Shown here piece by piece: positions 41,032 through 61,577 of a stretch of DNA of 64,000 nt. The notes below the pieces were generated by a model. That model had not been told where the DNA came from. It made no database searches and worked only from the letters and a program-made list of their open reading frames with translations. Position 1 is the stretch's first letter; every line of letters begins with the position of its first letter. Origin of the DNA: Candidatus Poribacteria bacterium (GTDB lineage: Bacteria; Poribacteria; WGA-4E; WGA-3G); NCBI GenBank assembly GCA_958295815.1, contig OY282374.1:311416-375415 (forward strand). Direction: 5' to 3'. The position numbers were made by a program, and so were the translations under genes.

Positions 41032-41373
41032 CTAAGCAGGTAACAGCAGCACAAATAATCCTCGATTGGCATCTCTTGCAAAGGTTTGGATATCCGAGTA
41101 ATGATTTCTCAAGTTATCTTCAACACTCCTTGTTGAACAATTCCCTAGACCGACCCAAATTACTTTTGGCGGAGGCCCGTAAACGGTGCTTCTATGCCTA
41201 AAGTCTGCATCTTTTGATACGATAAGATAATCGTTGTTACGAGCGTAATCCCATAACTCAGTATCGTCTACGACATCTAATCCAGCATCCTGGACATGAG
41301 TGGAATTAGGAAACAGATCCGCCAGCAGATTCACAAGATTCGGCGATAGGTTCTGATCGAATAGGAGTTTCAT
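41032..41373 (-). CDS. DUF5615 (PIN-like) toxin candidate
   Basis: MKLLFDQNLSPNLVNLLADLFP..., partnered with an upstream DUF433 gene. Start chosen at the conserved MKLLFDQN. Confidence 0.6.
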   Translation of the reverse strand: MKLLFDQNLSPNLVNLLADLFPNSTHVQDAGLDVVDDTELWDYARNNDYLIVSKDADFRHRSTVYGPPPKVIWVGLGNCSTRSVEDNLRNHYSDIQTFARDANRGLFVLLLPA

Positions 41374-41599
41374 TGGTGTAAACAACTATCTGCGATTTTT
41401 TCCAGTCGGCGGCGTACGCAAAACAGGCTCGAATATCCGTTTCAGTTAAATAGGGAAAATCATTAAGAATTTCCGCCACTGTCATACCTGATGCAAGATA
41501 TTCAAAGATATCATAAACGGTGATCCGCATGCCTCGAATGCACGGTTGCCCGCTACGTTTGCCCGGTTCAACGGTAATAATGCCTGTGTAGTCGTTCAT
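41306..41599 (-). CDS. DUF433 antitoxin candidate
   Basis: GKRSGQPCIRGMRITVYDIFEYLASGMTVAEILNDFPYLTETDIRACFAYAA. The 3' end overlaps the DUF5615 start. Confidence 0.6.
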   Translation of the reverse strand: MNDYTGIITVEPGKRSGQPCIRGMRITVYDIFEYLASGMTVAEILNDFPYLTETDIRACFAYAADWKKSQIVVYTNETPIRSEPIAESCESAGGSVS

Positions 41600-41842
41600 T
41601 GCTGTTCCCTCATTGGTAATACCAAATCTGAAAAATAAATTCGCATTTAAAAGATTTTGAAACTCTATGAAGCCGAATGTAAGAGGCGCGTGAATTGCGC
41701 TACTACGAACCGGTTTTTCGTTAATGAGAAACGATTATTCAAAAATGGTATAGGTTTCAAGCTTACTTATTCTAAAGTATACACGAAAAATTTTGAAAAA
41801 GCAAGCGATTCAGATTTCTAAGCAGCATCATTTCCCTATCAC

Positions 41843-43246
41843 TCATATCTCAAGGCGGATAAAGGCGAGATACGCACCCGACATCAGGACTACCAAAAAC
41901 AACACCAATAGCAATAAATCCGTCGCTGCTGTGTTGAAATCGCGGTTGAGACTGAGCGTGTCTTTAAATTTGGGGATCGCCTCTGGACTGACAGGCTTCT
42001 GCGACATGCCTTCGCGAATACCAACGACATGAAGGCTCGCTGGATCTGCCCTATCCGTATCAACAACGAATTCACGGTATTCACGGGCATAACGCTGCAC
42101 ATTCTCGATAAACTGCAAATGTCGTTCAAATCCTGTTCCAGCGAAGGATTCAAAGAGCCGTTGAACAATTGCCGCCGGTGAGATCCGAGTTATCGCACGC
42201 GCTCGTTTCCCTTGCATAATCTGTTCCTTCAAATACGCTTCATTGTAACGTTCGTGTTCTTCTGCTTCTTTGCTGACGTACTCGCCGAGTACATGCACTG
42301 GTGGTTTAGTCTGTGAACCGCCGTATTTGTCTTGGTATGCCGCGCGAGCCTCATCTGAGAGTCGGATGCGCTGGTTCCAAAATTCCACGTATGCTATTGG
42401 TACTGAGATTCGACTGCCGATAGATGCCAGAGTGTTAGGCATAAAAACCACAAAACTAACCCAGATTAAAAGCAAAACGACAAGGCTCACCCCACTCTCT
42501 CGCACCGCTGCTGAGATGAGGAGTCCCAAAGCAATAAAGAGACTGGCGTAAAGGATGACGATAGCGTATAAGATACCTAAACGTCCCCATGCTCCAGCAT
42601 TGAGTTGCACGGCATCTGATGTAGAGATTAGGAGTAGATTCATTAGCACCGCAATCGCAAACGGCATGTTAACACTGATAAACGCACCTAAGAACTTACC
42701 AATCAGCACAGTATGCCGTGGAACAGAATTTGCCAAGGTCAACCGTAATGTTCCCCGTTCCAGTTCGCCAGAGATTGTGTCAAAAGTAAACAGGATTGCC
42801 ACGAAACTCAGCACATAGCTGACGATGAATGCCCAATCCAGTGTTGTGAAATCAGGACGGATATTGTGGAGACTCGGTGTTTCTTGTGGGTACCCCATCC
42901 GCCAGACAGCAGTTAGGTTGGCAATGTCGCGAATATAGTTCCTGCCATCAGCGTGCTTTGGTAGAAACACCTCATCACCTTCTGCACAGAAACGGAGGGG
43001 TGAGGGTATTTTATGGAGGCCTCCAGGACCTTCTGTCGCAAGGCGATATAAACTTGTACTGCGTGCTTCTAATGCCTTCACAGCGTCGGCAGCGGCGTTG
43101 TGATATGCTTGTGTCCGCGCCGGGTGTTCTCGCAAATACACAACTGCATTGGTCAGCATCAGTGCCAACAGGAGAACCGTCGCCAATGCGAATCGGAGAC
43201 TATTGAGGTTATCGTAGAGTTCACGTTTTGCGATATGCCAAATCAT
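41843..43246 (-). CDS. ABC-2/NosY-like membrane protein, type A paralog (pair 2)
   Basis: MIWHIAKRELYDNLNSLRFAL; ISGELERGTLRL; ISPAAIVQRLFESFAGTGFERH; ends IRLEI. Confidence 0.75.
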   Translation of the reverse strand: MIWHIAKRELYDNLNSLRFALATVLLLALMLTNAVVYLREHPARTQAYHNAAADAVKALEARSTSLYRLATEGPGGLHKIPSPLRFCAEGDEVFLPKHADGRNYIRDIANLTAVWRMGYPQETPSLHNIRPDFTTLDWAFIVSYVLSFVAILFTFDTISGELERGTLRLTLANSVPRHTVLIGKFLGAFISVNMPFAIAVLMNLLLISTSDAVQLNAGAWGRLGILYAIVILYASLFIALGLLISAAVRESGVSLVVLLLIWVSFVVFMPNTLASIGSRISVPIAYVEFWNQRIRLSDEARAAYQDKYGGSQTKPPVHVLGEYVSKEAEEHERYNEAYLKEQIMQGKRARAITRISPAAIVQRLFESFAGTGFERHLQFIENVQRYAREYREFVVDTDRADPASLHVVGIREGMSQKPVSPEAIPKFKDTLSLNRDFNTAATDLLLLVLFLVVLMSGAYLAFIRLEI

Positions 43247-43362
43247 TTTTTGTTGTTGGTTATAAGTTATAAGTTGTAGGTCAGAAAGTCTTGGACTCAG
43301 AAAATTCATCGCACAGTCAGACGGCTTAACCAAGTACCAAGTACCAAAAACCAACAACCATT
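43247..43362. repeat. Type-1 intra-pair intergenic element
   Basis: Homologous to 20884-21006. Contains ACCAAGTACCAAGTACC and GGTTATAAGTTATAAGTTG. Confidence 0.6.
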
Positions 43363-44856
43363 TTACACTTCACTTCTGATAAAAATAAGAACTATCCCCA
43401 TAAATAAAACGAGGTTACATATCAATAATAGAAACAGATCCGGTAATGCACGTTTCGCATTTGTTCCAACGTCTCTTCTCTCAAAAGTAAACCGCGGGAG
43501 TGTGCTCCAATCTACCGGTCCTTTATCGGCAACAAACCACTCTCGTGATGAAAACGCATCCGTCGCGTAAAGATAGTCAATCACGACTCTCCGATACCGT
43601 CGTGTCGCATCGAAAAAATCTCTGAGGCCGAGTAGGTCTGTCCCTGCCCACGCCTGCGTTGCAGCGTCATAAATACCCACGGGTGATAACTTCAACAGTG
43701 CTCTATCCATCACGGCTTGTCGAACAAAAATATCATCAAGTGCCTGCTTCTGGACAAGCCACGCCTTGTCTGCGGCATTGGTGGCGAGTGGTTCAACGAA
43801 AGAATAATATTTCTTAGCAATAGGGACATACTTTTCAAAGTCAGGTGGGATTTCTGAAATAAGGCTCATATTTTCGAGGTAAGGTGAGAGGGTTACTGAA
43901 TCTACGTGCGCGTCGGTATAAAGACTCACCGCCTCGATAAACTGCGATGCATCTCCGATAACACTCTTGTTTTCAAGAAACTTTTTCCGCTCCCTTTCAT
44001 ATTCATCTACAATTTGTTGAATCTGGTTTTTAGCTGTTTTCGTGCGCTCTTGAACATCGGCACTCGGGTTAACTGTCGCCCGAATTAGGTTCGGGTACAC
44101 GAGTATCAGAAAACCCCATACGAACATCGCGAGCATTAGTGCTGTGCCGGTTCTACGTGTCGCTACGGAAATCAACAACCCAATGAGGTAAAATAGGGAT
44201 AGATACGCGAACGACGTAAAAACAATTCCAGCGATGCGGAGAAAATCGTCAGTTGACAATGGAATCGAACGGGTTAGCAAAAGCAGGGCAAAAAGCAGAC
44301 TCAATATCAGGGGAACCAGTAGACACGCCATAGCACTGATATATTTTGCAAGTAGGATCTGCCCGCGGCGGATAGGCTGTGCGAGGACGAGACGTAACGT
44401 CCCGCGTTCACGTTCCCCAGCAATAGCATCGTAGGCGAATATCAATCCCATTAGGCTGAGAATTACCTCAAAAACAAAGACAATATCAATTGAAGAAAAG
44501 AAGGCGATAAACGGATTGTCGGTACCGTGCATTTGGGCGTCCCAGAGTGTTGGCACAAATCCGTGATAGATACCAGTGAGATTTCCCAAGCGTTTATCTA
44601 ATCCGACATTGAAAATGCTTAACGGATTCGGAGCACGGTCAACGAACAGATACGCAGTAGAATAGGTTTTGGAATTACGTAACTCTTGATGATGCATTTT
44701 GACCGCATTGTTATAACTCTCCAAACGTTGTTCATAATCTTGAATAAGCACTGCCGTGTTTACAACAACGAGCAGCAGCGTGATGAGCAGCACTGCTGCG
44801 AAACGGAAGGTCATTAGATTATTGAGCAGTTCCCTACCAATAAGTGCTTTAAGCAT
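43363..44856 (-). CDS. ABC-2/NosY-like membrane protein, type B paralog (pair 2)
   Basis: MLKALIGRELLNNLMTFRF; AGERERGTLRL; LSPVGIYDAATQAWAGTDL; ends RSEV. Confidence 0.75.
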   Translation of the reverse strand: MLKALIGRELLNNLMTFRFAAVLLITLLLVVVNTAVLIQDYEQRLESYNNAVKMHHQELRNSKTYSTAYLFVDRAPNPLSIFNVGLDKRLGNLTGIYHGFVPTLWDAQMHGTDNPFIAFFSSIDIVFVFEVILSLMGLIFAYDAIAGERERGTLRLVLAQPIRRGQILLAKYISAMACLLVPLILSLLFALLLLTRSIPLSTDDFLRIAGIVFTSFAYLSLFYLIGLLISVATRRTGTALMLAMFVWGFLILVYPNLIRATVNPSADVQERTKTAKNQIQQIVDEYERERKKFLENKSVIGDASQFIEAVSLYTDAHVDSVTLSPYLENMSLISEIPPDFEKYVPIAKKYYSFVEPLATNAADKAWLVQKQALDDIFVRQAVMDRALLKLSPVGIYDAATQAWAGTDLLGLRDFFDATRRYRRVVIDYLYATDAFSSREWFVADKGPVDWSTLPRFTFERRDVGTNAKRALPDLFLLLICNLVLFMGIVLIFIRSEV

Positions 44857-44862
44857 TTTAAA

Positions 44863-46263
44863 TCACACCTCAACACGTACAAACGCGAGATACGCGCTCG
44901 ATAGTAGGACGACAACAAACAAGATTAACAATAGCAACTCCGTCGCAGCGGTATTAAAGTCCTTGCTGAGACTCAATGTATCTTCAAACCTCGGAATTGC
45001 TTCTGGACTCACCGGCTTCTGTGACATCCCTTCACGAACACCAATAAGATGGAGACTCTGTAGATCAGTTCTATCGGTTTCAACGATGAATTCGCTGTAT
45101 TGTCGACCGTAATGCTGCGCGTTTTCCAAAAATTGCAAGTGCCGCTCAAAGCCAGTTCCGGCAAAGGATTCAAGAAGATGCTGGACAATCGCAGCAGGTG
45201 AAATCTGGGTAATTGATCGCGCTCGTTGAACTTGTTCAACCTGCTGCATTAAACGTTTTTCAATCAGGCGGTCCTGTTCTACTTTGTCTTGAGTGACCAA
45301 CCGACTTCCCACCTGCATATCCTGCAACTTAGATACGCCTGTTTTCTGATGGTACTCCTCCCAGAGTTTGTCATTGATTTGGTATCGGCGTACTTGAAGT
45401 TCATCAGCGGACATCGGAGACGAAAAACCACTCGCGATTGAGGCGAGGATGCTGGGCATAAAAACCACGAAGGTGACCCATGTCAACAAAAGTATCACAA
45501 GACTTACCGCACTGCGTTGGACACGCGCCGACACGAGCAGCCCTAATGCTAGAAACAGACACGTGTACAGGAGCGCAATAAAGAAAACGATGCCTATACG
45601 TCCCCACGCATCCGCACCAAGATGGACAGCACTTGACGTGGAAATCACCAGAAGATTTATCAATACTGCCAGTGCGAAGGAGATGTTGACGCTTATCAAC
45701 GCACCTAAAAATTTACCTATGAGGACGGTATGGCGTGGAACCGAATTTGCTAATATCAAACGTAAGGTTCCGCGTTCACGTTCACCACTGACGGAATCAA
45801 AGGTGAATAGCAGGGCAATTAGACTCAATGCATAGCCAATGACGAATGCCCAGTCCACTTTGGTAACGTCTGGACGAATGTTTGTCAGATTAGGGGTCGC
45901 CGCCGGATACTGCATTCGCCAGAAACTACCTAAGTCATCTGTATCCCAAAAGTAATAGTGTGCCTCAACAGCACTTGACAAAAAGGTGTCGCCCCCTTCT
46001 GCGCAGAAATGAAGAGGAGAAGGCTTTTTGTAAAGTTTTCCAGGACCCTTTCGTGCGAGGTCGTATAAACTGTCTGCCCGCGACTCTAAGACATTGCGTG
46101 CGTCTACAACAGAAGAGAGATACTTCTGTATTCTCGCCGGATGCTCTTGGAGATGCACAACAGCATTGGTCAGCATTAATCCCAACAACAACACCATTGT
46201 GAGGGCAAACCGAAGGCTATTCAGATTATCATAGAGTTCGCGTTTTGCGATATGCCAAATCAT
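44863..46263 (-). CDS. ABC-2/NosY-like membrane protein, type A paralog (pair 3)
   Basis: Same conserved N-terminus, SGERERGTLRL, ISPAAIVQHLLESFAGTGFERH, ends RVEV. The stop lies 6 nt upstream of the B2 start. Confidence 0.75.
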   Translation of the reverse strand: MIWHIAKRELYDNLNSLRFALTMVLLLGLMLTNAVVHLQEHPARIQKYLSSVVDARNVLESRADSLYDLARKGPGKLYKKPSPLHFCAEGGDTFLSSAVEAHYYFWDTDDLGSFWRMQYPAATPNLTNIRPDVTKVDWAFVIGYALSLIALLFTFDSVSGERERGTLRLILANSVPRHTVLIGKFLGALISVNISFALAVLINLLVISTSSAVHLGADAWGRIGIVFFIALLYTCLFLALGLLVSARVQRSAVSLVILLLTWVTFVVFMPSILASIASGFSSPMSADELQVRRYQINDKLWEEYHQKTGVSKLQDMQVGSRLVTQDKVEQDRLIEKRLMQQVEQVQRARSITQISPAAIVQHLLESFAGTGFERHLQFLENAQHYGRQYSEFIVETDRTDLQSLHLIGVREGMSQKPVSPEAIPRFEDTLSLSKDFNTAATELLLLILFVVVLLSSAYLAFVRVEV

Positions 46264-46416
46264 TTTTGGGTTCTCGGTTGTGGGTACGGCGACTGCGTCG
46301 CCTTTAGGTCGTCAGTTAAATCCTGTGTTGGTCGAAAAGGTTTTCAATGCCGCAAATCTCATAACTCATAACTCATAACCCAAAGGGTTGCGCAGCAACC
46401 CGTACTTATAACTATT
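46264..46416. repeat. Type-2 intra-pair intergenic element with two perfect palindromes
   Basis: GGCGAC-TGC-GTCGCC (46288-46302), a CTCATAA x3 heptamer tract, and GGGTTGC-GCA-GCAACCC (46385-46401). Copies occur in pairs 4, 5 and 7. Confidence 0.8.
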
Positions 46417-47937
46417 CTACACTTCACTTTTGATGAAAATCAGAAATATTATTGTAAACAGAACCACATTGATTGTTAACAGTAGGAGTAAATCTGGTAA
46501 CGCTCGTTTTGTATTTGTTCCTATACTACTTCTTTCAAAAGAAAATTGGGGTAGTGTGTCCCAATCCACGACTGTCTCGTCTGAAGCAAACCACAGTCGA
46601 GACTTAAACGCCTCTCTATCGTATAAATAGGCAATAACTGTCCGTTGATATTGTCGAACTGCGTCGAAAAAATCTTGAAGCCCTTTCAAATCGGTACCTG
46701 TCCACGCCTGTGTCGCAGCATCGTACATTCCAACCGGCGAAAGTTTCAACAGTATTCTATCAATTAACGCCGGTTTCACGAAGATGTCCTCAAGCGTCTG
46801 CCTTCGAATTAACCATGTTTGGTCTGCTGTATCGATAATCTGACGCCAGAGGAAACCGTAATAATTTTGGGCATGTGGGACCCGCGGGAGGGATTCCTCA
46901 GTTAGCTTGCCGTTATAGTATAGGACGCTCCAATAGTAATAGGATAACGTCAATCGGTTCTCGCTAAATCCATCTCCTGCACCCCAACCATCGGGACTAT
47001 CTATGTCAAACATTGGATCTTCTCCGGGGACAGGGTCCGTGGCAAGGAAGTGTTTGCGTTCTCTATCGAATTCTTCCCATATTTGCTTAATTTGACCGAA
47101 AGCGGATGCTCCACGCTCCGCTGAGGTGTCTTGAGGAGCAGTCGTGGCAAGAACCACATTTGGATAGACCAGCACCAAAAACCCCCAAACAAAGATAGAT
47201 AGCATAAGCGCCGTGCTCGTTCTGCGAGTCACCGCCGAAATCAATAGCCCAATGAAATAAAACACCGACAGATAAGCAACGGAAGCAAGAATAATTCCAC
47301 CGACGCGGAGAAAATCGTCGGTTGTTAGGTAAATTGAAGTGGATGTTGTTAGCAAAATCAGTGCGAGAAGCAGACTCATCAGCAACGGCATAAGCAGGCA
47401 TAACATCGCGCTGATATATTTGGCAAGTAGAATATACCCGCGCTGGACAGGGTGCGTCAAAACAAGGCGTAGTGTGCCACCTTCATATTCTCCCGCAAGA
47501 GCATCATAGGCAAATATGAGTGCAAGTAGACTCAGGACAACCTCAAAGATAAACACAATATCAATTGAAGAAAAAATGTTAAGAAACGAATTATCCGAGC
47601 TATTCATTTGGGCATCCCACAATGACGGAACATGCCACGGAGACACATTAATTTCGTTGCCTAATCGGTTATCTAACCCAACATTGAATAGACTTAAAGG
47701 ATTAGGCGGTCTATCGACATACACTCTAACTATCGCGGGCGAATAGGTTTGTCTCTTACGTACATTTTGCTGATGCGTCTCGACGGAGGTGTTGTAATCC
47801 ACCAAACGTCGCTCGTAATCTTTGATGAGCACGGCGGTGGCAGCGACAACAAGCAAAAGTGTGATGAAGACTGCTGCCGCGAAGCGAAACGTCATAAGGT
47901 TGTCGAGTAATTCTCGGCGGATAAGTGTCATCAGCAT
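46417..47937 (-). CDS. ABC-2/NosY-like membrane protein, type B paralog (pair 3)
   Basis: MLMTLIRRELLDNLMTFRF; AGEYEGGTLRL; LSPVGMYDAATQAWTGTDL; ends KSEV. Confidence 0.75.
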   Translation of the reverse strand: MLMTLIRRELLDNLMTFRFAAAVFITLLLVVAATAVLIKDYERRLVDYNTSVETHQQNVRKRQTYSPAIVRVYVDRPPNPLSLFNVGLDNRLGNEINVSPWHVPSLWDAQMNSSDNSFLNIFSSIDIVFIFEVVLSLLALIFAYDALAGEYEGGTLRLVLTHPVQRGYILLAKYISAMLCLLMPLLMSLLLALILLTTSTSIYLTTDDFLRVGGIILASVAYLSVFYFIGLLISAVTRRTSTALMLSIFVWGFLVLVYPNVVLATTAPQDTSAERGASAFGQIKQIWEEFDRERKHFLATDPVPGEDPMFDIDSPDGWGAGDGFSENRLTLSYYYWSVLYYNGKLTEESLPRVPHAQNYYGFLWRQIIDTADQTWLIRRQTLEDIFVKPALIDRILLKLSPVGMYDAATQAWTGTDLKGLQDFFDAVRQYQRTVIAYLYDREAFKSRLWFASDETVVDWDTLPQFSFERSSIGTNTKRALPDLLLLLTINVVLFTIIFLIFIKSEV

Positions 47938-47943
47938 TTTGTA

Positions 47944-49347
47944 TTACACCTCCACACGTACAAACGCGAGATACGCGCCTGACAAGAGAACGGCGAGGAA
48001 CAGAATCAACAACAGTAAATCCACCGCAGCAGCGTTGAAATCACGACTGAGGCTGAGTGTATCCTCAAATGTTGGGATTGCTTCTGAGTTGATAGGCTTC
48101 TGAGACATACCCTCACGCACCCCGATGATATGGCGACTGTCTGGGTCTGCTCTATCCATATCTGTGACGAATTCCCGAAACTCGCGTGCGTAGACCTGCA
48201 CATTCTCCACAAATTGTTGATGCTGTTCAAACCCCGTTCCAGCAAAAGATTCAAAGAGATGTTGGATGAGTGCAGCTGGTGAGATGCGGGTAACGGAACG
48301 CGCCAGTTGAATTTGGGCGTGCTGCTGTGCTAAGTGTTCGTGGATCAAACGTTCCCCTCGCTCAGTACCTTTGGAGACATACTCTCCTCTCAACTCTATT
48401 CTTTTAGTGGGTACCCCACGCGTGTCTTGCAAACGAGCATTATATTCATCCCCGAGTTCAGCGTAAAGTTGTTCGTAGCGTTCCCAGTATTCCTCAGAAG
48501 TCATCGGGCTTGAAAATCCGCTTGCAGTGGAAGCGAGTGTACTCGGCATAAAAACCACGAAGGAAACCCACATCAACAGCAGTATTACGAGACTCGCTCC
48601 ACTTTGATGCACACGCGACGACACTAACAAACCTAATGCCAGAAACAGACATAAGTACAGGAGTGAAATAAAAAAAATGATGCCTAAACGGCTCCATGCA
48701 TCGGTGCCGACTTGGACGTCGCTTGACGTGGAAATCACTAACAGGTTCATCAACACCGCAAGCGTAAACGGGACGCTAATACTTACCAATGCCCCTAAAA
48801 ACTTGCCTATCAGTACGGTATGGCGCGAAACCGAGTTCGCCAGCGTCAAACGCAGTGTGCCTTGTTCGCGTTCGCCGGAAATCGAATCAAAGGTGAACAG
48901 GAGCGCGATGAGGCTCAAGACGTACCCTATCACAAATCCCCAATCTACTTTGATAGTGTTTGGACGAATGTTTTTTAAATTGGGCATCTGGTATCGATAT
49001 GACAAATACCAGAGGGTATTCAAGTCATTGGTAATCCGAGAGATAAGTATATAGATAGTATCTGGCAAAAAGACTTCGCCTCCATCCGCACAGAAATGTA
49101 GCGGAGAAGGCTTTTTGTGAAATTTTTCGGGACCCAATTGCGCAAGGTCATATAAATCTGTCCGGGATCTTAAGCGATTCAGCAGTTCTGTGCTGGCATC
49201 GTGATATTTCTGCATACGCGCAGGATGTTCCCGGAGATGCACGACAGCGTTGGTCAGCATCAAGCCGAAAAGCAGCACTGTTGCCAGAGCAAATCGGAGG
49301 CTATTCAGATTGTCGTAAATTTCGCGTTTTGCGATATGCCAAATCAT
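47944..49347 (-). CDS. ABC-2/NosY-like membrane protein, type A paralog (pair 4)
   Basis: MIWHIAKREIYDNLNSLRFAL; SGEREQGTLRL; ISPAALIQHLFESFAGTGFEQH; ends RVEV. Confidence 0.75.
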   Translation of the reverse strand: MIWHIAKREIYDNLNSLRFALATVLLFGLMLTNAVVHLREHPARMQKYHDASTELLNRLRSRTDLYDLAQLGPEKFHKKPSPLHFCADGGEVFLPDTIYILISRITNDLNTLWYLSYRYQMPNLKNIRPNTIKVDWGFVIGYVLSLIALLFTFDSISGEREQGTLRLTLANSVSRHTVLIGKFLGALVSISVPFTLAVLMNLLVISTSSDVQVGTDAWSRLGIIFFISLLYLCLFLALGLLVSSRVHQSGASLVILLLMWVSFVVFMPSTLASTASGFSSPMTSEEYWERYEQLYAELGDEYNARLQDTRGVPTKRIELRGEYVSKGTERGERLIHEHLAQQHAQIQLARSVTRISPAALIQHLFESFAGTGFEQHQQFVENVQVYAREFREFVTDMDRADPDSRHIIGVREGMSQKPINSEAIPTFEDTLSLSRDFNAAAVDLLLLILFLAVLLSGAYLAFVRVEV

Positions 49348-49493
49348 TTTTGGGTTCTCGGTTGTGGGTACGGCGACTGCGTCGCCTTTGGGTCGTCAGT
49401 TAAATCCTGTGTCGGTCGAAAAGGTTTTCAATGCCGCAAATCTCATAACTCATAACCCAAAGGGTTGCGTAGCAACCCGTACTTATAACTATT
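49348..49493. repeat. Type-2 intra-pair intergenic element
   Basis: GGCGACTGCGTCGCC at 49372-49386 and GGGTTGCGTAGCAACCC at 49462-49478. Confidence 0.8.
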
Positions 49494-50999: not shown

Positions 51000-51002
51000 C
51001 TG

Positions 51003-52412: not shown

Positions 52413-52557
52413 TTTTGGGTTCTCGGTTGTGGGTACGGCGACTGCGTCGCCTTTGGGTCATCAGTTAAATCCTGTGTCGGTGGAAAAGGTTGTCAATGCC
52501 GCAAATCTCATAACTCATAACCCAAGGGTTGCGTAGCAACCCGTACTTATAACTACT
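52413..52557. repeat. Type-2 intra-pair intergenic element
   Basis: GGCGACTGCGTCGCC at 52437-52451 and GGGTTGCGTAGCAACCC at 52526-52542. Confidence 0.8.
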
Positions 52558-54060
52558 CTACACTTCACTCTTAACGAAGACCAGAAATATTGCTGCGAAA
52601 AGGACGAGGTTAATCATCAATAATAGAAATAAATCCGGAAACGCGCGTTTTGCATTTATGCTTATATCACTTCTCTGGAAGGAGAACTGAGGTAGAATAT
52701 TCCAATCAACCCCTCTCTTGTCGCCGGTAAACCATTGTCGAGACTCGAACACCTTTTTGTCATGGAAAAAATCTACGATTGCTTGGTGGTAGCGTTGCCC
52801 CGCAGTGAAAAAATCTTGGAGTCCATTTAAGTCGGTGCCTGTCCAAGCTTCAGTTGCCGAATCATACAGACCTACAGGGGAGAACTTTAACAACATCCGT
52901 TCCATTTTTGCGGGTTGGACGTAGAGAGCCTCCAGCGCAGGTTTTCGGACGATCCATGTTCGGTCTGAGGTGTTGGTAATCTGTAAACCGAGAAAACGGT
53001 GATAATTCTGGGCGTGGGGCACCTGTGGTTCTGATTCCTCTAAAAGTTCTTCAAAGTGGAATCCGGAGTAGTTGTAATATAGTAATGATGGTGAATCATC
53101 TCTGCCACCCCAAAAACTGTAGCCTTTACCCCACAAACCGAAATCCCAATCATCTTCTGGTACTGGATCGTTGGCGAGAAACTGCATTCGCTCTCGATCA
53201 AATTCGTCCCATATCTGTTTGATTTGGTTGTGGGCAACGGTTTCTGTATCCGCTTGTGGAGCAGTTTCAATCGCCGTAAGAATCATATTTGGATACACCA
53301 AGACTAAGAAACCCCAGACGAACATAGAGAGCATAAGGGCTGTACTCGTCCGACGAATCGCCGCTGAAATCAGCATACCGATGAGATAGAATAACGACAG
53401 ATAAGCAAACGACGTAAAAATAACCCCACCAATACGGAGAAAATCATCGGTTCTCAGAAAAATAGAAGTAGAGGTCGTTAGCATAATCAACACCAGGAGG
53501 AAACACATCAGTAGCGGTATAAGTAAGCATGTCATCGCACTAATGTATTTCGCAAATAGAATCTGGCCGCGCGAAACCGAATGTGTCAAAACGAGTCGTA
53601 AAGTGCCGCGTTCACGTTCCCCCGCAAGTGCATCGTAGGCAAAAACGAGTGCCAATAGGCTGAGAACTCCTTCAAAGATAAAGACAATATCAATCGAGGA
53701 GAAGAGATTGAGGTATGTGTTATTTGTCCCGTGTTTACCTGCATCCCACAGTGATGGGATGTAAAGGTAATAAACGCCGAGTGTGTTCCCTAACCGTTTG
53801 TCCAAACCGAGGTTGAAAATGCTCAATGGATTCGGAGGACGATCAAGGATTAAATCTACCGATGAATATGTTTTTGTTTCCAGTAGCTCCTGTCGATGCT
53901 TTTCGACGGCAGTGTTGTAACTCGTCAACCGACGTTCGTAATCTCTGATGAGCACAAAGGTATTGGCAACCACAAGCAACAGCATAATAAAAACCGCTGC
54001 AGTAAAACGGAATGTCATCAGATTGTCAAGGAGTTCTCGACGAATGAGTGTTATTAGCAT
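52558..54060 (-). CDS. ABC-2/NosY-like membrane protein, type B paralog (pair 5)
   Basis: MLITLIRRELLDNLMTFRF; AGERERGTLRL; FSPVGLYDSATEAWTGTDL; ends KSEV. Confidence 0.75.
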   Translation of the reverse strand: MLITLIRRELLDNLMTFRFTAAVFIMLLLVVANTFVLIRDYERRLTSYNTAVEKHRQELLETKTYSSVDLILDRPPNPLSIFNLGLDKRLGNTLGVYYLYIPSLWDAGKHGTNNTYLNLFSSIDIVFIFEGVLSLLALVFAYDALAGERERGTLRLVLTHSVSRGQILFAKYISAMTCLLIPLLMCFLLVLIMLTTSTSIFLRTDDFLRIGGVIFTSFAYLSLFYLIGMLISAAIRRTSTALMLSMFVWGFLVLVYPNMILTAIETAPQADTETVAHNQIKQIWDEFDRERMQFLANDPVPEDDWDFGLWGKGYSFWGGRDDSPSLLYYNYSGFHFEELLEESEPQVPHAQNYHRFLGLQITNTSDRTWIVRKPALEALYVQPAKMERMLLKFSPVGLYDSATEAWTGTDLNGLQDFFTAGQRYHQAIVDFFHDKKVFESRQWFTGDKRGVDWNILPQFSFQRSDISINAKRAFPDLFLLLMINLVLFAAIFLVFVKSEV

Positions 54061-54063
54061 CTA

Positions 54064-55476
54064 TTATACCTCAACGCGCACAAACGCCAGATACGCGCCT
54101 GACAGAAGCACTAAGACAAATAACATTAGCAGTAACAATTCCATTGTAGCAGTATTGAAGTCCTTACTCAGATTAAGCGTATCTTCAAATTTCGGGATTG
54201 CCTCTCGGTTGACAGGCTCCTGCGACATACCAGTACGAACACCAAAGATGTGAAGGCTTTCTGGATCCGCGCTATCTGTATCAACAATAAATGTGCGAAA
54301 TTCTCGTACGTAAGCCCTTACATTTTCTAAGAATTGGAGATGTCTCTCAAACCCCGTTCCAGCGAAGGATTCAATAAGGTTCTGTACAATTGTAACAGGA
54401 GAGATACGGGTTATAGTGCGCGCTTGATGTACCTCAGCTATCCGCTGGTTTAAGCGTTCTTCGTGCAGCCTCTCCTGCTGTTCAGCATCTTTGGTGACGT
54501 ACGCACCATCAATTTGTATTCTCTTGATAGAACCCTCAGCCTCTTTATGGCGACGAGGCGAGTATTCGTCTCGTAGTTCACCATGAATTTTCCATGAACG
54601 TTCTGAGAAGTCAAATGTAGGACCTGATGGTGTAGATTTCCCCGCAATTGAAACGAGGGTACTCGGCATAAATACCACGAATACAACCCAAACCAATAGA
54701 AGTATTACGAGGCTCACCGCGCTCCGTTGCACACGTGCCGACACGAGTAGACCCAATGCAAGAAAAAGGCAGGTGTAAAGGACAGCAATAAGGAAGATTA
54801 TGCCTAAACGTCCCCACGCCTCCGCACCAAGGTGGACATCACTTGACGTAGAAATTACCAAAAGGTTCACCAGGACGGCGAGGATGAAGGGGATGTTAAC
54901 ACTTATCAACGCTCCTAAAAACTTACCAATTAGAACGGTGTGCCGCGGAATTGAGTTCGCCAAGGTCAGTCGGAGTGTGCCGTGTTCGCGTTCGCCGGAA
55001 ATCGAATCAAAAGTAAACAGGAGTGCAATGAGGCTTAAAACGTAGCCAATAACGAACCCCCAATCCACTTTGGTAACGTCTGGCCGAACATTATCCCGAT
55101 TAGGGGTGGCAGATGGGTATGTGAGTATCCAAAAACTTTTGAGTGTGTCGGTACTCCAGCGGTGGTGACCTGCCCATGCCCGATCTGACATAAACGCTTC
55201 GCCACCCTCTGCACAAAAACGGAGATCGGACGGTTTTTTGTGCAGATTGCCCGGTCCTTCCTGCGCAAGGTCATATAGACTGTTTGCCGCATGAGATGCT
55301 ATGTGATTCTGGTATTGGGAAACGCGGTCACGATATCGCTGCACCCGCTCTGGATGTTCCCGAAGATGTACAACAGCGTTCGTCAGCATCAACCCCAGCA
55401 ACAATACCGTTGCAAGCGCGAAGCGTAGGCTACTTAGATTATCGTAAAGTTCTCGTTTTGCGATATGCCAAATCAT
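54064..55476 (-). CDS. ABC-2/NosY-like membrane protein, type A paralog (pair 6)
   Basis: Start set at the conserved MIWHIAKRELYDNLSSLRFAL (ATG 55476). SGEREHGTLRL; ISPVTIVQNLIESFAGTGFERH; ends RVEV. Confidence 0.75.
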   Translation of the reverse strand: MIWHIAKRELYDNLSSLRFALATVLLLGLMLTNAVVHLREHPERVQRYRDRVSQYQNHIASHAANSLYDLAQEGPGNLHKKPSDLRFCAEGGEAFMSDRAWAGHHRWSTDTLKSFWILTYPSATPNRDNVRPDVTKVDWGFVIGYVLSLIALLFTFDSISGEREHGTLRLTLANSIPRHTVLIGKFLGALISVNIPFILAVLVNLLVISTSSDVHLGAEAWGRLGIIFLIAVLYTCLFLALGLLVSARVQRSAVSLVILLLVWVVFVVFMPSTLVSIAGKSTPSGPTFDFSERSWKIHGELRDEYSPRRHKEAEGSIKRIQIDGAYVTKDAEQQERLHEERLNQRIAEVHQARTITRISPVTIVQNLIESFAGTGFERHLQFLENVRAYVREFRTFIVDTDSADPESLHIFGVRTGMSQEPVNREAIPKFEDTLNLSKDFNTATMELLLLMLFVLVLLSGAYLAFVRVEV

Positions 55477-55526
55477 TTTTTTATGGCTTTCAGCTGTCAG
55501 CAATCAGCCTTCAGCAAAGAGCCTCC

Positions 55527-55597
55527 ACTCTTTGTAGGAGGGGTTTGTAACCCCGATTCTTTACTCTTTGTGGGAGGGGTTTGTAACCCCGATTCTT
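55527..55597. repeat. Two REP copies (GGGGTTTGTAACCCC core) occupying the pair-6 intergenic region
   Basis: CTCTTTGTAGGAGGGGTTTGTAACCCCGATTCTTT followed by CTCTTTGTGGGAGGGGTTTGTAACCCCGATTCTT. Same family as 35061-35126 and 35800-35950. Confidence 0.8.
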
Positions 55598-55626
55598 ACG
55601 TAGCGACCTGACGGCTGACCGCCACT

Positions 55627-57132
55627 CTACACTTCACTTTTAACAAAAATCAGAAATATGATAATGAACAGAACGACATTAATCATGAGCAGTAAACACA
55701 CGTCCGGTATCGCTCGCTTTGCATTTATGTTGATGTCATCTCTTTGAAATGAGAACTGAGGCAGACCGCTCCAATCCGCCGCCCCCTTGTCCCCAGAGAA
55801 CCATTGTCTCGATTCAAACACTTTATTATCGTAAAAATAGCTAATTACGCTTTGTCTATATTGTCTCGCATCGTGAAAGAAATCTCTGATCCCGAGCAAA
55901 TCGGTTCCTGCCCACGCTTGCGTTGCAGCATCGTACAAACCTACAGGCGAGAGTTTCAACCAGATTCTCTCCATATTTGCGGGTTGAATGAAAATTTCTT
56001 CGAGTGTGGGCTTTCGGATGAGCCATGTTCGATCCGCTGCGTCAATAGTCTGCGCGCCAAGGAAACCAAAATGTTTCTGGGCGTGAGGCATCTTGGGTTC
56101 ATCTTCTTCACCAAATCCTTCGAAATCCATAGTACTTCTATAGGTGTAAGATAGCGTCCGGGCATTATCCAAAAAATAAGCACCGCGCGAACCCCATCCT
56201 TTTAACTCATAACCCCAATCTTCTCCTGGGAAATCGTCGGTAGCAAGGTAGTGTTTACGCTCTCTGTCAAATGTGTCCCAGATACTTTCAATTTGGTTGA
56301 AAGCGGATGTTCTGAGAGCATCTGGAGCCTCTGGACGTGGGGTCACAGTGAGAATCACATTTGGGTAGACTAAGACCAAAAAGCCCCAAATAAACATTGA
56401 CGACATCAAGGCAGTACTTGTTCGGCGAGTTGCCGCTGAAATCAGCAATCCGATGAGGTAGAATACGGAAAGATACGCAATGGATGTGAAAATAATACCA
56501 CCGATGCGAAGAAAATCATTATTATTCAGGGATATGGAGGCGGATGTCGTCAGCAAAATTGTCGCGAGGAGCAAACTCATCAACAATGGCACAATTAGGC
56601 AGAGCATTGCACTAATGTATTTAGCAACCAATATTTCTCCTCGTCCAATAGCATGCGTCAAGACTAAACGCAGTGTTCCGCTTTCGTATTCTCCCGCGAA
56701 TGCATTATACGCGAAAATTAGTGCTAACAGACTCAGGATTACCTCAAAGATAAAAACAATATCCATTGAAGCAAACATATCCATAAACGGATTTGCAGAC
56801 TCGTGCATGTTAGCATCCCACAGCGACGGCACCGATCCGTGAGAGATCCGTACTTCGTTGCCAAGACGCTTGTCAAACCCAACATTGAAAATACTCAATG
56901 GGTTAGGGGGGCGGTCAACGCGCACTGCACCGGCGGAATAGGTAATTTTTTCTTGCAGTTGACGTTGATGCATTTTGACAGCCTCGTTATGACTTGCCAA
57001 ACGTCGTTCATAATCCGTAATCAACACAAAGGTATTGGCAACTACAAGCAGCAGCATGATGAAGACTGCTGCTGCGAATCGAAATGTCATAAGGTTGTCG
57101 AGTGTTTCTCGACGGATAAGTGTTCCTATCAT
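55627..57132 (-). CDS. ABC-2/NosY-like membrane protein, type B paralog (pair 6)
   Basis: MIGTLIRRETLDNLMTFRF; AGEYESGTLRL; LSPVGLYDAATQAWAGTDL; ends KSEV. Confidence 0.75.
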   Translation of the reverse strand: MIGTLIRRETLDNLMTFRFAAAVFIMLLLVVANTFVLITDYERRLASHNEAVKMHQRQLQEKITYSAGAVRVDRPPNPLSIFNVGFDKRLGNEVRISHGSVPSLWDANMHESANPFMDMFASMDIVFIFEVILSLLALIFAYNAFAGEYESGTLRLVLTHAIGRGEILVAKYISAMLCLIVPLLMSLLLATILLTTSASISLNNNDFLRIGGIIFTSIAYLSVFYLIGLLISAATRRTSTALMSSMFIWGFLVLVYPNVILTVTPRPEAPDALRTSAFNQIESIWDTFDRERKHYLATDDFPGEDWGYELKGWGSRGAYFLDNARTLSYTYRSTMDFEGFGEEDEPKMPHAQKHFGFLGAQTIDAADRTWLIRKPTLEEIFIQPANMERIWLKLSPVGLYDAATQAWAGTDLLGIRDFFHDARQYRQSVISYFYDNKVFESRQWFSGDKGAADWSGLPQFSFQRDDININAKRAIPDVCLLLMINVVLFIIIFLIFVKSEV

Positions 57133-57138
57133 TTTATA

Positions 57139-58551
57139 TTATACCTCAACGCGCACAAATGCGAGATAAGCCCCTGACAGAAGTACGACGACAAACAATG
57201 TTAGCAGTGCCAACTCCGTTGCGGCGGTATTGAAATCCTTGCTGAGATCAAGCGTGTCTTCAAATTTTGGAATCGCCTCTGGACTGACAGGCTTCTGTGA
57301 CATACCCTTACGAATACCATAAATATGAAGGCTCTCTGGATCCGCTTGATCGGTATCAGCGATGAATGTCCTATATTGCTGAGCGTAGGATTGTACATTC
57401 TCCAAGAATTGCAAATGCCGCTCGAAACCTGTTCCAGCAAAAGATTCGAGCAGATGCTGAACAATCGTAACAGGTGAGATACGAATTACGGCTCGCACTC
57501 GGCTCATTTGAGAAATCTGTTGTTTTAAGAGTTCTTCGTGCAAGCGTTGCTGCGCCTCAGCGTCTTTAGCAACGTACGCCCCACCCAACTCTATTCTTTT
57601 CGTCGAGTCTTTAGGCTCCTCAAACCAGCGAGAGAAGAATTCAGCTTCACTTTCACGCTTAAGTTGCCAAGACCGTTCGTAAAACTCATCAGAGGACATG
57701 GGCGATGAAAGACCACCAACGATGGAAGCGAGCGTATTTGGCATAGACACAACAAAAACAACCCATACCAGCAGAAGTATCACAAGACTCACAGCACTCC
57801 GCTGCACACGGGCAGACACTAATAAACCCAACGCGAGAAAAAGACACATGTATAGCAGTGCAATAAGGAAGATGATACCTAAACGTCCCCACGCTTCAGT
57901 GCTGAGATGAACATCGTTTGCTGTGGAAATCACCAACAGATTCAATAACACCGAAAGTGCAAAAGGGATAGTGATACTTATTAATGTTCCTAATAGCTTA
58001 CCGATCAGTGCCGTGTGTCGTGGCACAGAATTCGCCAACATCAATCGTAGCGTGCCGCGTTCGCGTTCACCGGAGATCGCATCAAACGTGAACAACAAAG
58101 CCACGAGGCTTAAGACGTAGCCGATGATAAATCCCCAATCTACCTTGATAACATCTGGACTGATATTTCTCAAATTGGGAGTAATCGGTGGATATGCCAG
58201 TATCCAGAAACTTTCAAGGTCGTCCATACCCCAACGGCCGAAACCGCCTTCCACATTATCTGGCAAAAAGGTTTCTCCGCCTTCTGCACAAAAGCGCAGA
58301 GGTGATGGTTTTTTGGGAAGACGTCCAGGACCTTGCTCCGCAAGTTTATATAAACTATCAGCAGCGGAGGATTCTAAGCGATTCTCATGTCTGACAACAG
58401 TATCGCGATAATTTTGTAACTGCTTTGGATGCTCTCGGAGATGCATAACGGCATTGGTCAACATCAAGCCGAGCAGCAACACTGTTGTCAGCGCGAAGCG
58501 AAGGCTATTGAGGTTATCGTAGAGTTCACGTTTTGTGATATGCCAAATCAT
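57139..58551 (-). CDS. ABC-2/NosY-like membrane protein, type A paralog (pair 7)
   Basis: MIWHITKRELYDNLNSLRFAL; SGERERGTLRL; ISPVTIVQHLLESFAGTGFERH; ends RVEV. Confidence 0.75.
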   Translation of the reverse strand: MIWHITKRELYDNLNSLRFALTTVLLLGLMLTNAVMHLREHPKQLQNYRDTVVRHENRLESSAADSLYKLAEQGPGRLPKKPSPLRFCAEGGETFLPDNVEGGFGRWGMDDLESFWILAYPPITPNLRNISPDVIKVDWGFIIGYVLSLVALLFTFDAISGERERGTLRLMLANSVPRHTALIGKLLGTLISITIPFALSVLLNLLVISTANDVHLSTEAWGRLGIIFLIALLYMCLFLALGLLVSARVQRSAVSLVILLLVWVVFVVSMPNTLASIVGGLSSPMSSDEFYERSWQLKRESEAEFFSRWFEEPKDSTKRIELGGAYVAKDAEAQQRLHEELLKQQISQMSRVRAVIRISPVTIVQHLLESFAGTGFERHLQFLENVQSYAQQYRTFIADTDQADPESLHIYGIRKGMSQKPVSPEAIPKFEDTLDLSKDFNTAATELALLTLFVVVLLSGAYLAFVRVEV

Positions 58552-58673
58552 TATGGGGTTCTCGGTTGTGGGTACGGCGACTGCGTCGCCTTTGAGTCGT
58601 GAGTTAAATCCTGTCTCTTAACTCATAACTCATGACCCAAAGGGTTGCGCAGCAACCCGTACTTATAACTATT
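58552..58673. repeat. Type-2 intra-pair intergenic element (shortened copy)
   Basis: GGCGACTGCGTCGCC at 58576-58590 and GGGTTGCGCAGCAACCC at 58642-58658. Confidence 0.8.
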
Positions 58674-60179
58674 CTACACTTCACTTTTGACGAAGATCAG
58701 AAATATTACGATGAAAAGAACGGCGTTAATCATGAACAAAATAGATACGTATGGTAGTGCTCGCTTAGCATTTGTATCAACATCAACCCGTTGAAAGAAA
58801 AACCGTGGGAGACTGTCCCAATCTGGTGTGTCTTTATCTCCAGCGAACCATTGTCGAGACGCAAAAACCTTTTCATTGTGATAATGGTTAACCACTTGCT
58901 GTCTGTATTCTCTCGCCGCCTCGAAAAAGTCTCGGATCCCATTTAAATCGGTTCCTGCCCAGGCTTGTGTTGCTGCGTCATACAGCCCTGCTGGTGAGAG
59001 TTTCAACCAAACTCTTTCCATATTTGTGGGTTGGACTAAGATTTCCTCAAGAGCGGGCATTCGGATAAGCCATGTTTTCTCTGCTGTGTCTGTAACGCGT
59101 GGGCCGAGGAACCCATAATAATTTTGGGCGTGAGGTACTCGAGATTCAGCGTCCTTAACAAGTTCTTTCATGTGTAGAGCACTATGATAAACATACCATA
59201 GTGATGATGAACTTCCGTAAGAGTATTCGTTATACCATCCAGACGCCATCATTTCAAAAGTCGTCTTCTCTCCTGGGAAGGCATCATTTATGAGGAACTG
59301 TTTGCGTTCTCTGTCGAATTCTTCCCAAGTCTGCTCAATTTGGCTGTAAGCGGATGCAACACGTGCTTTTGGTGCCTCAGGTCGTGGGATGGCTGCAAGG
59401 ATCATATTTGGATAGACCAGCACCAAAAATCCCCATGCGAACATTGACAGCATCAATGCGGTACTCGTTCGGCGGGTTGCCACTGAAATCAATATGCCGA
59501 TGAGATAGAATACCGACAAGTACACAACGGAGGTCAAAATGATGCCACCAATCCGTAGAAAATCATCTGTATTCAGAGAGATAGAGGTGGAGGTCGTTAG
59601 CAAGATTACTGCGAGGAGCAGGCTCATCAGCAGGGGCACGAGCAGGCAAAGCATCGCACTAATGTATTTGGCGAGTAAGATATATCCGCGACGGACGGAG
59701 TGCGTCAAGACTAAACGTAATGTACCACGTTCATATTCCCCAGCAAGGGCATCGTAGGCGAAAATCAGTGCCAGCAGACTCAGGATAGCCTCAAAGATAA
59801 ACACGACATCCATTGAGGCGAACATGCCCATAAATGAATTCGTTGAACCATGACTGCCAGCATCCCACAACGTCGGGACATACCTGTGTGATACTTCAAC
59901 CTCATTTCCGAGCCGCTTATCGAACCCGACATTAAATATGCTCAATGGGTTAGGAGGGCGATCAACTTCCAATTTTCCAGCGGAATAGGTTAGTTTTTCC
60001 TGCAGTTGCTGCTGATGGGTTTTGAGAGCGGTGTTGTAGTCTGCTAATCGATTTTCGTAGTCTTTAATGAGCACAACGGTATTGGCAACTACCAGCAACA
60101 GCATAATCAAAACAGCTGCTGCGAAGCGGAAAGTCATCAGATTGTCGAGGAGTTCGCGGCGGATGAGTGTTGTTAGCAT
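58674..60179 (-). CDS. ABC-2/NosY-like membrane protein, type B paralog (pair 7, first gene of the array)
   Basis: MLTTLIRRELLDNLMTFRF; AGEYERGTLRL; LSPAGLYDAATQAWAGTDL; ends KSEV. Confidence 0.75.
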   Translation of the reverse strand: MLTTLIRRELLDNLMTFRFAAAVLIMLLLVVANTVVLIKDYENRLADYNTALKTHQQQLQEKLTYSAGKLEVDRPPNPLSIFNVGFDKRLGNEVEVSHRYVPTLWDAGSHGSTNSFMGMFASMDVVFIFEAILSLLALIFAYDALAGEYERGTLRLVLTHSVRRGYILLAKYISAMLCLLVPLLMSLLLAVILLTTSTSISLNTDDFLRIGGIILTSVVYLSVFYLIGILISVATRRTSTALMLSMFAWGFLVLVYPNMILAAIPRPEAPKARVASAYSQIEQTWEEFDRERKQFLINDAFPGEKTTFEMMASGWYNEYSYGSSSSLWYVYHSALHMKELVKDAESRVPHAQNYYGFLGPRVTDTAEKTWLIRMPALEEILVQPTNMERVWLKLSPAGLYDAATQAWAGTDLNGIRDFFEAAREYRQQVVNHYHNEKVFASRQWFAGDKDTPDWDSLPRFFFQRVDVDTNAKRALPYVSILFMINAVLFIVIFLIFVKSEV

Positions 60180-60567
60180 TATGTTCCTCTACCTATAGTT
60201 TACCAGTTTCGCGTTTTTTGAGCGAATGCAAAATGTCTGTACTGAGACGCCTCAAACCTCACCAGCAAGTCTTGTTGTGCGGACTTTAGAAGATGTTTAA
60301 TCTGCGGTGCTAATACGTTATAACCTAATCTACTTCTTTTTCTTCATTATAGAACGGGTGCCGCGAACTAACAGTTTACGCTACAATACCCTTTCATTGA
60401 ACTCACGTTAATATAAAGACACAGTTTTGTGATGGAAAGGATGCATAAATTTGATGCTACTGAATTTTTATGTTAACTACGTGGGTGGATGCATAGTATA
60501 GGCGCACGAAGGGTGAAGCAGGATTATGAAGTGATGATGGTAAAAGGGTGGTTAGGAAAGGAAAAAG

Positions 60568-61563: not shown

Positions 61564-61577
61564 CTAACAGTTAAACC

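Follow-up and report, generated by a model that had tools for sequence, protein, structure and literature searches.

Here we describe a tandem array of membrane-protein genes in a 64,000-nucleotide stretch of Candidatus Poribacteria DNA (contig OY282374.1 of assembly GCA_958295815.1, positions 311,416 to 375,415 of the forward strand), the whole of which is called the window below. Twelve intact open reading frames (ORFs) of the minus strand fill positions 41843-60179 as six alternating pairs of a B-type gene (497-506 aa) and an A-type gene (466-470 aa), in agreement with an earlier note, made from the sequence alone, that had described 18.3 kb of intact B-A units of near-constant length. The same note spoke of a sevenfold amplification, which needs correction in its placement: the array holds six pairs, and a seventh lies at 19456-22518 (minus strand), ~19 kb from the array and right behind a purB-like lyase gene. 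The permease genes, all on the minus strand, are as follows.

58674..60179, minus: B1, a 501-aa ABC-2/DUF3526 permease that opens the array (PF12679 E 1.5e-28; PF12040 29.3 bits)
57139..58551, minus: A1, a 470-aa ABC-2/DUF3526 permease (PF12679 E 1.2e-32; PF12040 36.5 bits)
55627..57132, minus: B2, 501 aa, 69% identical to B1, with orthologs at 89-90% in other species
54064..55476, minus: A2, 470 aa counted from the conserved ATG, 71% identical to A1, with orthologs at 88%
52558..54060, minus: B3, 500 aa
51003..52412, minus: A3, 469 aa
49494..50999, minus: B4, 501 aa
47944..49347, minus: A4, 467 aa
46417..47937, minus: B5, 506 aa
44863..46263, minus: A5, 466 aa
43363..44856, minus: B6, 497 aa (PF12679 E 1.2e-30; PF12040 25.7 bits)
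41843..43246, minus: A6, 467 aa from the conserved ATG, closing the array (PF12679 E 5.2e-32; PF12040 33.3 bits)
21007..22518, minus: B7, 503 aa, directly downstream of the purB-like lyase gene (PF12679 E 1.6e-24; PF12040 32 bits)
19456..20883, minus: A7, ~475 aa (PF12679 E 1.4e-30; PF12040 37.4 bits)

The ORF listing gave A2 and A6 upstream TTG starts; both contain the MIWHI(A/T)KRELYDNL start of the other A copies, which places their true starts at 55476 and 43246, respectively. Spacing within the array is uneven, with 116-153 nt from B to A and 3-6 nt from A to the next B, and the Poribacteria-wide medians are similar (132 nt and 6 nt). A scan for promoter-like sites found 31 in the array against 29.9 in shuffled sequences, while terminator-like sites were mildly enriched (29 against 19.4), two of them being the first hairpin of the type I spacers described below.

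Both protein types belong to one family of ATP-binding cassette (ABC) transporter permeases. Pfam searches with hidden Markov models covered eight A and B copies, B1, A1, B6, A6, B7 and A7 among them, the others being assigned by alignment; they returned ABC2_membrane_2 (PF12679) at E 1e-24 to 1e-32 (87-114 bits against a cut-off of 27.2) and DUF3526 (PF12040) at 25.7-37.4 bits against a cut-off of 25, the latter marginal yet consistent between copies. The resemblance to DUF3526 suggested in the earlier note is thus borne out above cut-off, and precomputed DUF3526 hits exist on homologs of the array proteins as well. The motif E-x-E-x-G-T-L-R-L, seen in both types from the start, is invariant in 7/7 A and 7/7 B copies, and its ExExG part is near-invariant across a 93-sequence family alignment with a mean identity of 30%. 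The C-terminal tail varies in three copies, FLRVDV in A7, FIRLEI in A6 and FTKSEV in B4; the first two had been noticed before, under what are other copy numbers than ours, and the third is an addition.

Hydropathy analysis gives six transmembrane (TM) helices per protein, A1 residues 3-465 align to positions 1-278 of the 283 in the PF12679 profile, and an AlphaFold2 model of B1, built from a diverse alignment, likewise has six TM helices (pLDDT 93.3, pTM 0.90). Because all three agree, these proteins have an ordinary NosY-like ABC-2 core, in which the soluble insertion separates TM5 from TM6 and no further TM is present; the six-TM core of the earlier description therefore stands, and its placement of the insertion after TM6, followed by a terminal TM, does not. 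From the N terminus, each permease consists of a cytoplasmic amphipathic helix, TM1 extended as a long helix, the periplasmic domain ECD1 (~85-100 aa) and TM2. A cytoplasmic coupling loop with ExExGTLRL, TM3-TM5, ECD2 (~180-215 aa), TM6 and a short tail complete the protein. In the B1 model, ECD2 is built of a helix, a beta-hairpin, a 50-residue helix and two more helices.

A Foldseek search with the B1 model found NosY as best match (TM-score 0.65-0.73 over the target), followed by PmtD and by ABCG/ABCH/ABCA, and sequence-profile searches also matched NosY (E 5e-10 and 3e-9) and PmtD; the periplasmic domains of the model found no structural match in the fold search. Membership in the named families nearest by these measures was rejected in each case. 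Scores to GldF (TIGR03518, 20.5-37.8 bits) and PmtD (NF047564, 18.5-29.8 bits) lie far from the equivalog cut-offs of 288.5 and 220, and gene context is also against both. NosY was rejected as there is no match to an NCBIfam NosY equivalog and the proteins, at 466-506 aa, carry two large insertions; Nos proteins were absent among the neighbors in the window and in 157 related loci. A well-characterized family had been named as a finding that would make the array unremarkable: homologs are indeed routinely annotated, as 'ABC transporter permease subunit' at NCBI and after COG NosY at JGI, and the family itself is uncharacterized. It is also large, with 4,485 clusters at 50% identity at E <= 1e-3 and 1,131 at E <= 1e-30. 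In one 819-aa relative (locus L159, 232-2691), a Laminin_G_3 (LamG) domain is joined to the N terminus of the ABC-2/DUF3526 body, a hint that some members of the family have an extension that binds carbohydrate or protein.

The window encodes no recognizable ATPase for these permeases. The Walker A pattern GxxxxGK[ST] was not found in any of the six frames of the 64 kb, and the looser [AG]xxxxGK[ST] occurs only within four stop-to-stop stretches of 22-86 aa. A tblastn search of the window with the related ATPase C (introduced below) gave no match, and Pfam scans of the other window ORFs gave no ABC_tran; these ORFs are housekeeping and envelope genes, among them those for IleRS, RsmB, ThiE, ThiD, MurJ, a HisF-like protein and a TonB-dependent receptor. 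By these three approaches the absence of Walker A and ABC signatures reported at first reading holds, and the remark that this is not a standard ABC operon was a fair one. The cognate ATPase that ABC-2 systems carry in the same operon is lacking in the window; core loci in related genomes do have it.

The close relatives of A1 all come from Candidatus Poribacteria metagenome-assembled genomes and chromosomes, the best 80 of 417 matching stretches being 63-78% identical, and relatives among metagenome proteins reach 94-99%. By ORF classification, B-A pairs and arrays occur throughout 77 Poribacteria loci, in some of which a gene for a 240-aa ABC ATPase stands right behind the last A. A search with this ATPase, C (the query starts MLETRDLTKVYNENVLAVN), gave 166 matches, the best 80 of them at 89-100% identity. 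C matches PF00005, and its highest scores are to DrrA, lantibiotic-protection, GldA and NodI-type ATPases; the DrrA/GldA/NodI class of ATPases partners ABC-2 permeases. B or A genes lie beside C in 84 of the 88 C-containing Poribacteria loci, and in 76 of the 88 the order is C-X-OEP. A core locus in its full form consists of ECF (extracytoplasmic function) sigma factor, B, A, C, X and OEP. Across the 157 loci, C is the sole ATPase recurrently linked to the B/A family; other ABC ATPases near B/A loci are PotA-type or ABCB-type and are unlinked or on the opposite strand.

OEP in the core loci of the relatives is an outer-membrane protein of the TolC family (PF02321 E 1.4e-37; TIGR01844 E 6e-13). 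X always follows the ATPase and is a protein of ~755-820 aa (for example L097 10742-13009). Anchored at its C terminus by a TM segment, it has a signal peptide, a coiled coil and beta-sandwich segments in repeated form. The sole Pfam match of X is NPCBM_assoc, and profile searches found no HlyD or membrane fusion protein (MFP) signature and no sequence relative in the PDB; X is an as yet uncharacterized periplasmic component. Genes for C, X, OEP and the ECF-sigma fusions described below were not found in the window.

In 22 Poribacteria assemblies of chromosome scale, B-A pairs or arrays (up to five or more pairs) lie 0.1-4 Mb from one or two core loci, so that multi-permease operons lacking an ATPase and one or a few ATPase genes elsewhere are found on the same chromosomes. 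This supports, by way of the relatives, the suggestion of a shared ATPase encoded elsewhere: there C stands beside B/A in 84/88 loci, the arrays are distant, and the coupling motif is the same. Core loci take two forms, ECFs-B-A-C-X-OEP and ECFs-Prx-B-C-X-OEP. In the latter, the core is B-only and stands behind a 400-540 aa protein that carries an AhpC/TSA-redoxin domain at its C terminus (L120 2487-4121, L148 7026-8273), and on several chromosomes this form is the second core locus. Many single B-A pairs and C-X-OEP core loci of Poribacteria are directly preceded by fusions of an ECF sigma factor, a TM segment and WD40 beta-propeller repeats, ~560-1050 aa long (L001 3619-5310, L148 3825-6989, L011 5269-8241). 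Beyond Poribacteria, a locus search with single proteins found only two Latescibacteria loci. One Latescibacteria-type contig holds X-like, OEP, ATPase C, ECF sigma, B and A genes in one locus, and because the whole set is present there, the core genes form a functional unit that is conserved beyond Poribacteria.

The copies of the window differ from one another in a distinctly regional manner. A and B share 24% identity. Array copies of one type share 56-71%; the seventh pair is more distant (B7 51-53% to B1-B6; A7 48-50% to A1-A6). Among the seven paralogs of each type, pairwise identity is 83-91% in the cytoplasmic N-terminal helix and 76-80% in the coupling loop, and falls to 47-58% in ECD1 and 32-39% in the variable half of ECD2. 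In type V ABC exporters it is the N-terminal helix and the coupling loop that contact the nucleotide-binding domain (NBD), as in the NosFY, ABCG and Wzm-Wzt structures. Copies adjacent to C and orphan copies have the same coupling-loop consensus, FD..SGERERGTLRL.LAN for A and YDA.AGE.E.GTLRLVLTH for B. Conservation across 40 core loci of different species is 93% for C, 83% for X and 79% for OEP, against 52-54% for the adjacent A and B.

The window copies are under purifying selection and individually maintained, with dN/dS (the ratio of nonsynonymous to synonymous divergence) of 0.10-0.20 against a 94% identical relative. They are also old, as dS between paralogs is saturated, and for every copy a distinct ortholog, 78-90% identical, exists in other species, where the array order differs. 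Comparison of the A and B trees, proposed earlier as a check of unit-wise duplication, shows that duplication went by B_i-A_i units: in a mirror-tree test this pairing ranked 15 among 720 assignments (r = 0.74). The shifted pairing A_i-B_(i+1), for which translational coupling across the tight 3-6 nt gap might speak, was rejected on the mirror-tree result (r = -0.56) and on the overlap of B and A in relatives outside Poribacteria.

On balance, and with moderate confidence, we favor the view that there are at least seven differentiated permeases of B-A heterodimer type, six of them encoded in the array, which run on a common ATPase, C, encoded in trans, and which work with X and a TolC-like channel by way of their long stalk domains in the periplasm. 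B-A pairs lacking an ATPase of their own would be energized by this shared DrrA/GldA-type protein, whose gene in Poribacteria lies in one or two core loci along with those for the periplasmic multi-beta-sandwich protein X and the TolC-family OEP. Every B-A dimer would show C one conserved docking surface, made of the N-terminal amphipathic helix and the ExExGTLRL coupling loop, and the dimers would differ in their periplasmic domains: ECD1 between TM1 and TM2, and the helical DUF3526 stalk with its beta-hairpin between TM5 and TM6. Given that in the relatives the motor, X and OEP are encoded just once or twice elsewhere, the pairs would most likely be interchangeable heads, specific to a substrate or a partner, on one engine and one conduit. 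The likeliest job of such a system would be to extrude hydrophobic or toxic compounds, or to extract them from the membrane or periplasm, through the TolC-like channel. We further speculate that the ECF-sigma-WD40 genes act as envelope-stress sensors in an organism that lives in a metabolite-rich sponge matrix.

Several points weigh against this interpretation. The C-X-OEP set of the window's own genome is assumed from relatives that are 63-94% identical, and the tie between the orphan pairs and C is drawn from sequence comparison and the conserved coupling elements. The higher conservation of C (93%, against 52% for A/B) is suggestive at most, because ATPases are generally better conserved than permeases. 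The A1 structure model is poor (pLDDT 61, from a shallow alignment) and unusable for a fold search, and the six-TM type V exporter fold of the A type is accordingly proposed from homology. As X is no recognizable HlyD-type adaptor, the analogy with tripartite efflux is loose. Finally, some arrays in other genomes span the entire 20-kb region examined, where an adjacent ATPase could lie beyond; the window array, unlike those, is bounded on both sides.

The pairs might instead be true ABC permeases powered by other ABC-2-type ATPases encoded elsewhere, possibly a different one for each pair, rather than by C. This is unlikely, even though the array has no linked ATPase and the ATPase search covered the window and related genomes. 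Some Poribacteria chromosomes carry two C paralog loci of different make-up (B-A-C-X-OEP and Prx-B-C-X-OEP), and because they do, more than one engine exists. Set against these observations are the recurrent linkage of the family to C and to no other ATPase in 157 loci, and the coupling motif that C-adjacent and orphan copies share.

It is more doubtful still that the proteins are independent of ATP and serve as scaffolds, sensors or receptors, in the manner of ABC-2-like proteins of the YhgE/Pip type. The 64 kb devoid of an ATPase, the large and divergent periplasmic domains, and the many satellite pairs that stand behind ECF-sigma-WD40 genes in relatives, a hint of signaling, would all suit such a role. 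The N-terminal helix and the ExExGTLRL loop are nevertheless the best conserved parts, with ExExG near-invariant family-wide, and elements that contact an NBD are hard to explain where there is no NBD partner; homologs also lie directly upstream of the ATPase in core loci. A non-transport membrane function, the other option raised in the earlier note, thus finds no support in the pattern of conservation. It is scarcely credible that the copies are redundant duplicates or were created by misassembly, with no differentiation of function: tandem paralogs do often break assemblies, and in the 94% relative the contig stops within the array, but 14/14 ORFs are intact, the copies are just 56-71% identical with saturated dS and dN/dS of 0.1-0.2, each has its own ortholog in other species, and an independent assembly shows the same layout.

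Known systems resemble the proposed C-powered B-A permeases in different respects. By profile and fold, the closest solved relative of the array permeases is NosFY of the NosDFY(L) copper-delivery complex (PDB 7o0y, 7o0z, 7znq). Both have a six-TM type V/ABC-2 core, and both work, the array permeases putatively, with a periplasmic partner and a separate DrrA-class ATPase. NosY, unlike the array proteins, is a 270-aa homodimer that has neither ECD1 nor the DUF3526 insertion, and the array, unlike NosDFY, has no NosD, NosL or NosZ genes nearby and consists of A/B hetero-pairs in many copies. The partner in the Poribacteria system would be X, with its NPCBM_assoc-type beta-sandwiches, plus a TolC-like channel, and not Nos proteins.

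Sharing of one ATPase by many sugar permease modules is the arrangement of MsiK in Streptomyces. In Streptococcus, MsmK likewise energizes many sugar permease modules that lack an ATPase (PMC4519317). Unlike the Poribacteria system, MsmK and MsiK serve type I importers with substrate-binding proteins and have no envelope conduit or tandem permease arrays. In the mycobacterial Mce systems, one ATPase, MceG, serves the YrbEA/YrbEB permease pairs of several operons (PMC9947336, PMC13492129). Common to Mce and the Poribacteria pairs are operons of (here putatively) heterodimeric permeases lacking an ATPase, the ATPase elsewhere, and periplasm-spanning accessory proteins. Mce permeases are MlaE-like and not ABC-2 as in the array; they are lipid importers, whereas the Poribacteria pairs are presumed exporters; they occur in four operons rather than in tandem arrays of pairs; and ATPase sharing has been shown experimentally for Mce, whereas for the Poribacteria pairs we infer it.

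MacAB-TolC and YbhGFSR combine an ABC transporter having sizeable periplasmic domains with a TolC-family protein, and YbhS and YbhR are two ABC-2 permeases. A TolC-family outer-membrane protein is common to efflux of the MacAB-TolC type and to the Poribacteria core loci (those of relatives, not the window). MacB has a type VII fold, unlike the array permeases, and in MacAB-TolC and YbhGFSR the ATPase is always in the operon; for the HlyD/MFP adaptor of tripartite efflux no counterpart was detected, X having no such Pfam match. Similarity to GldAFG and PmtCD is weak by NCBIfam, both of A/B to GldF/PmtD and of C to GldA/PmtA (for the permeases 20-38 bits against equivalog cut-offs of 220-288), and there is no GldG-type partner. 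By analogy, then, the Poribacteria system would work most like the shared-ATPase systems of MceG and MsmK, in an envelope layout loosely that of MacAB-TolC/YbhGFSR and with a NosY-like TM fold. The organizing principle has precedent; we found no earlier description of it for ABC-2 exporters, for this family or for tandem cassette arrays.

The surroundings of the array were as first reported, with a tRNA gene upstream and a toxin-antitoxin pair downstream, found by ARAGORN and Rfam and by Pfam, respectively.

60567-60641, minus: tRNA-Ile(GAT), the upstream boundary, on the same strand as the array (ARAGORN; Rfam tRNA 74.1 bits)
41032..41620, minus: DUF433 / DUF5615 (PIN-like) toxin-antitoxin-type pair, the downstream boundary (PF04255 E 6e-26; PF18480 E 4e-34; the 5' limit of DUF433 is approximate)

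Further upstream on the same strand lies the 3' end of a 16S rRNA gene (63519-64000, minus). Between it and the tRNA (60567-63266) are genes for a 3-keto-disaccharide hydrolase-like protein, a PhyH dioxygenase and a polysaccharide deacetylase, and no 23S. The order 16S rRNA, three protein genes, tRNA-Ile(GAT), permease array thus represents a split rRNA operon, which is kept in the 94% relative (L157 2511-7862). The 130-kb contig of this relative has the same layout, with 16S rRNA, three protein genes, tRNA-Ile and B1-A1-B2-A2, and ends inside the array. A TonB-dependent receptor gene (24348-26576) lies on the opposite strand ~1.8 kb from the seventh pair; in other phyla, DUF3526 genes occur beside TonB-dependent receptors.

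The spacers from B to A hold structured repeats of three types, characterized here by minimum free energy (MFE), z-score and mutual identity.

58552..58673, minus: B1-A1 spacer, a shortened type I structured repeat (MFE -41.1 kcal/mol, z -5.05), 75-79% identical to other type I copies
55477..55626, minus: B2-A2 spacer, type III repeat, two copies of GAATCGGGGTTACAAACCCCTCC (z -4.06)
52413..52557, minus: B3-A3 spacer, type I repeat, 97% identical to the B4-A4 spacer (flanking coding sequence 72-73%)
49348..49493, minus: B4-A4 spacer, type I repeat (MFE -45.5 kcal/mol, z -5.09)
46264..46416, minus: B5-A5 spacer, type I repeat
43247..43362, minus: B6-A6 spacer, type II repeat, common to B7-A7, 84% identical to 20884-21006 (z -3.13)

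Type I spacers fold strongly, show 90-97% mutual identity, against 69-76% in the adjoining 300 nt of coding sequence, and are almost missing from other Poribacteria species; they represent either a young element like REP (repetitive extragenic palindromic) or MITE (miniature inverted-repeat transposable element) sequences, or gene conversion confined to the spacers. The type II spacers of B6-A6 and B7-A7 contain heptad tandem repeats (TTGGTAC...) and a partly complementary 3' arm, and the genes that flank them are just ~50% identical. Similar heptad-repeat arms (CAGTTTT, CAGTTGT, GTCAGC) occur in the B-to-A spacers of many Poribacteria. The type III hairpin repeat, GAATCGGGGTTACAAACCCCTCC(C/T)ACAAAGAGT, is present twice in the B2-A2 spacer and again at 35062-35125, 35797-35836 and 35911-35950, unrelated intergenic positions around thiE, and in other Poribacteria loci; it is a genome-wide REP-like family. 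Related palindromic repeats were found between C and X, between X and OEP, and in unrelated intergenic DNA on both strands. A regulatory RNA belonging to the system was considered for the B-to-A spacers and rejected as the primary reading, given that Rfam returned no match for them and that the repeats recur at unrelated sites; the spacers look like genome-wide REP-like repeats.

ATPase sharing among permease modules is established for importers (MsiK, MsmK and the transporters of the energy-coupling factor, or ECF, type) and for the Mce lipid importers. Our literature search found no paper that mentions DUF3526 or ties Poribacteria to ABC-2 or permease expansion, and no description of a shared ATPase for ABC-2/type V exporters or of tandem arrays of heterodimer cassettes. 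If the modular model is correct, the pairs would be a natural system for the study of how one NBD dimer serves many transmembrane partners. A testable function would then be at hand for a large uncharacterized family (>4,000 clusters at 50% identity).

More tentatively, and at slightly less than an even chance, we propose a general arrangement for Poribacteria and at least some Latescibacteria. A constant chassis of C, X and a TolC-like channel, encoded once or twice in a genome, would be combined with a library of ancient, individually conserved B-A cassettes that differ mainly in their periplasmic DUF3526 stalks, seven of them in these 64 kb and many in relatives behind an ECF-sigma-WD40 sensor of their own. 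Such an arrangement would be the first exporter-type system of ABC-2 fold with plug-in substrate modules, and would give DUF3526 its first proposed function. The puzzle of the missing ATPase would then have an ordinary answer, in a system that is uncharacterized and, in scale, lineage-defining. For annotation, a 'permease without ATPase' would here be a lineage-wide design and not an incomplete operon. If true, the modular arrangement would explain a gene expansion in a dominant phylum of sponge symbionts, plausibly one that serves tolerance or traffic in the chemically rich sponge matrix.

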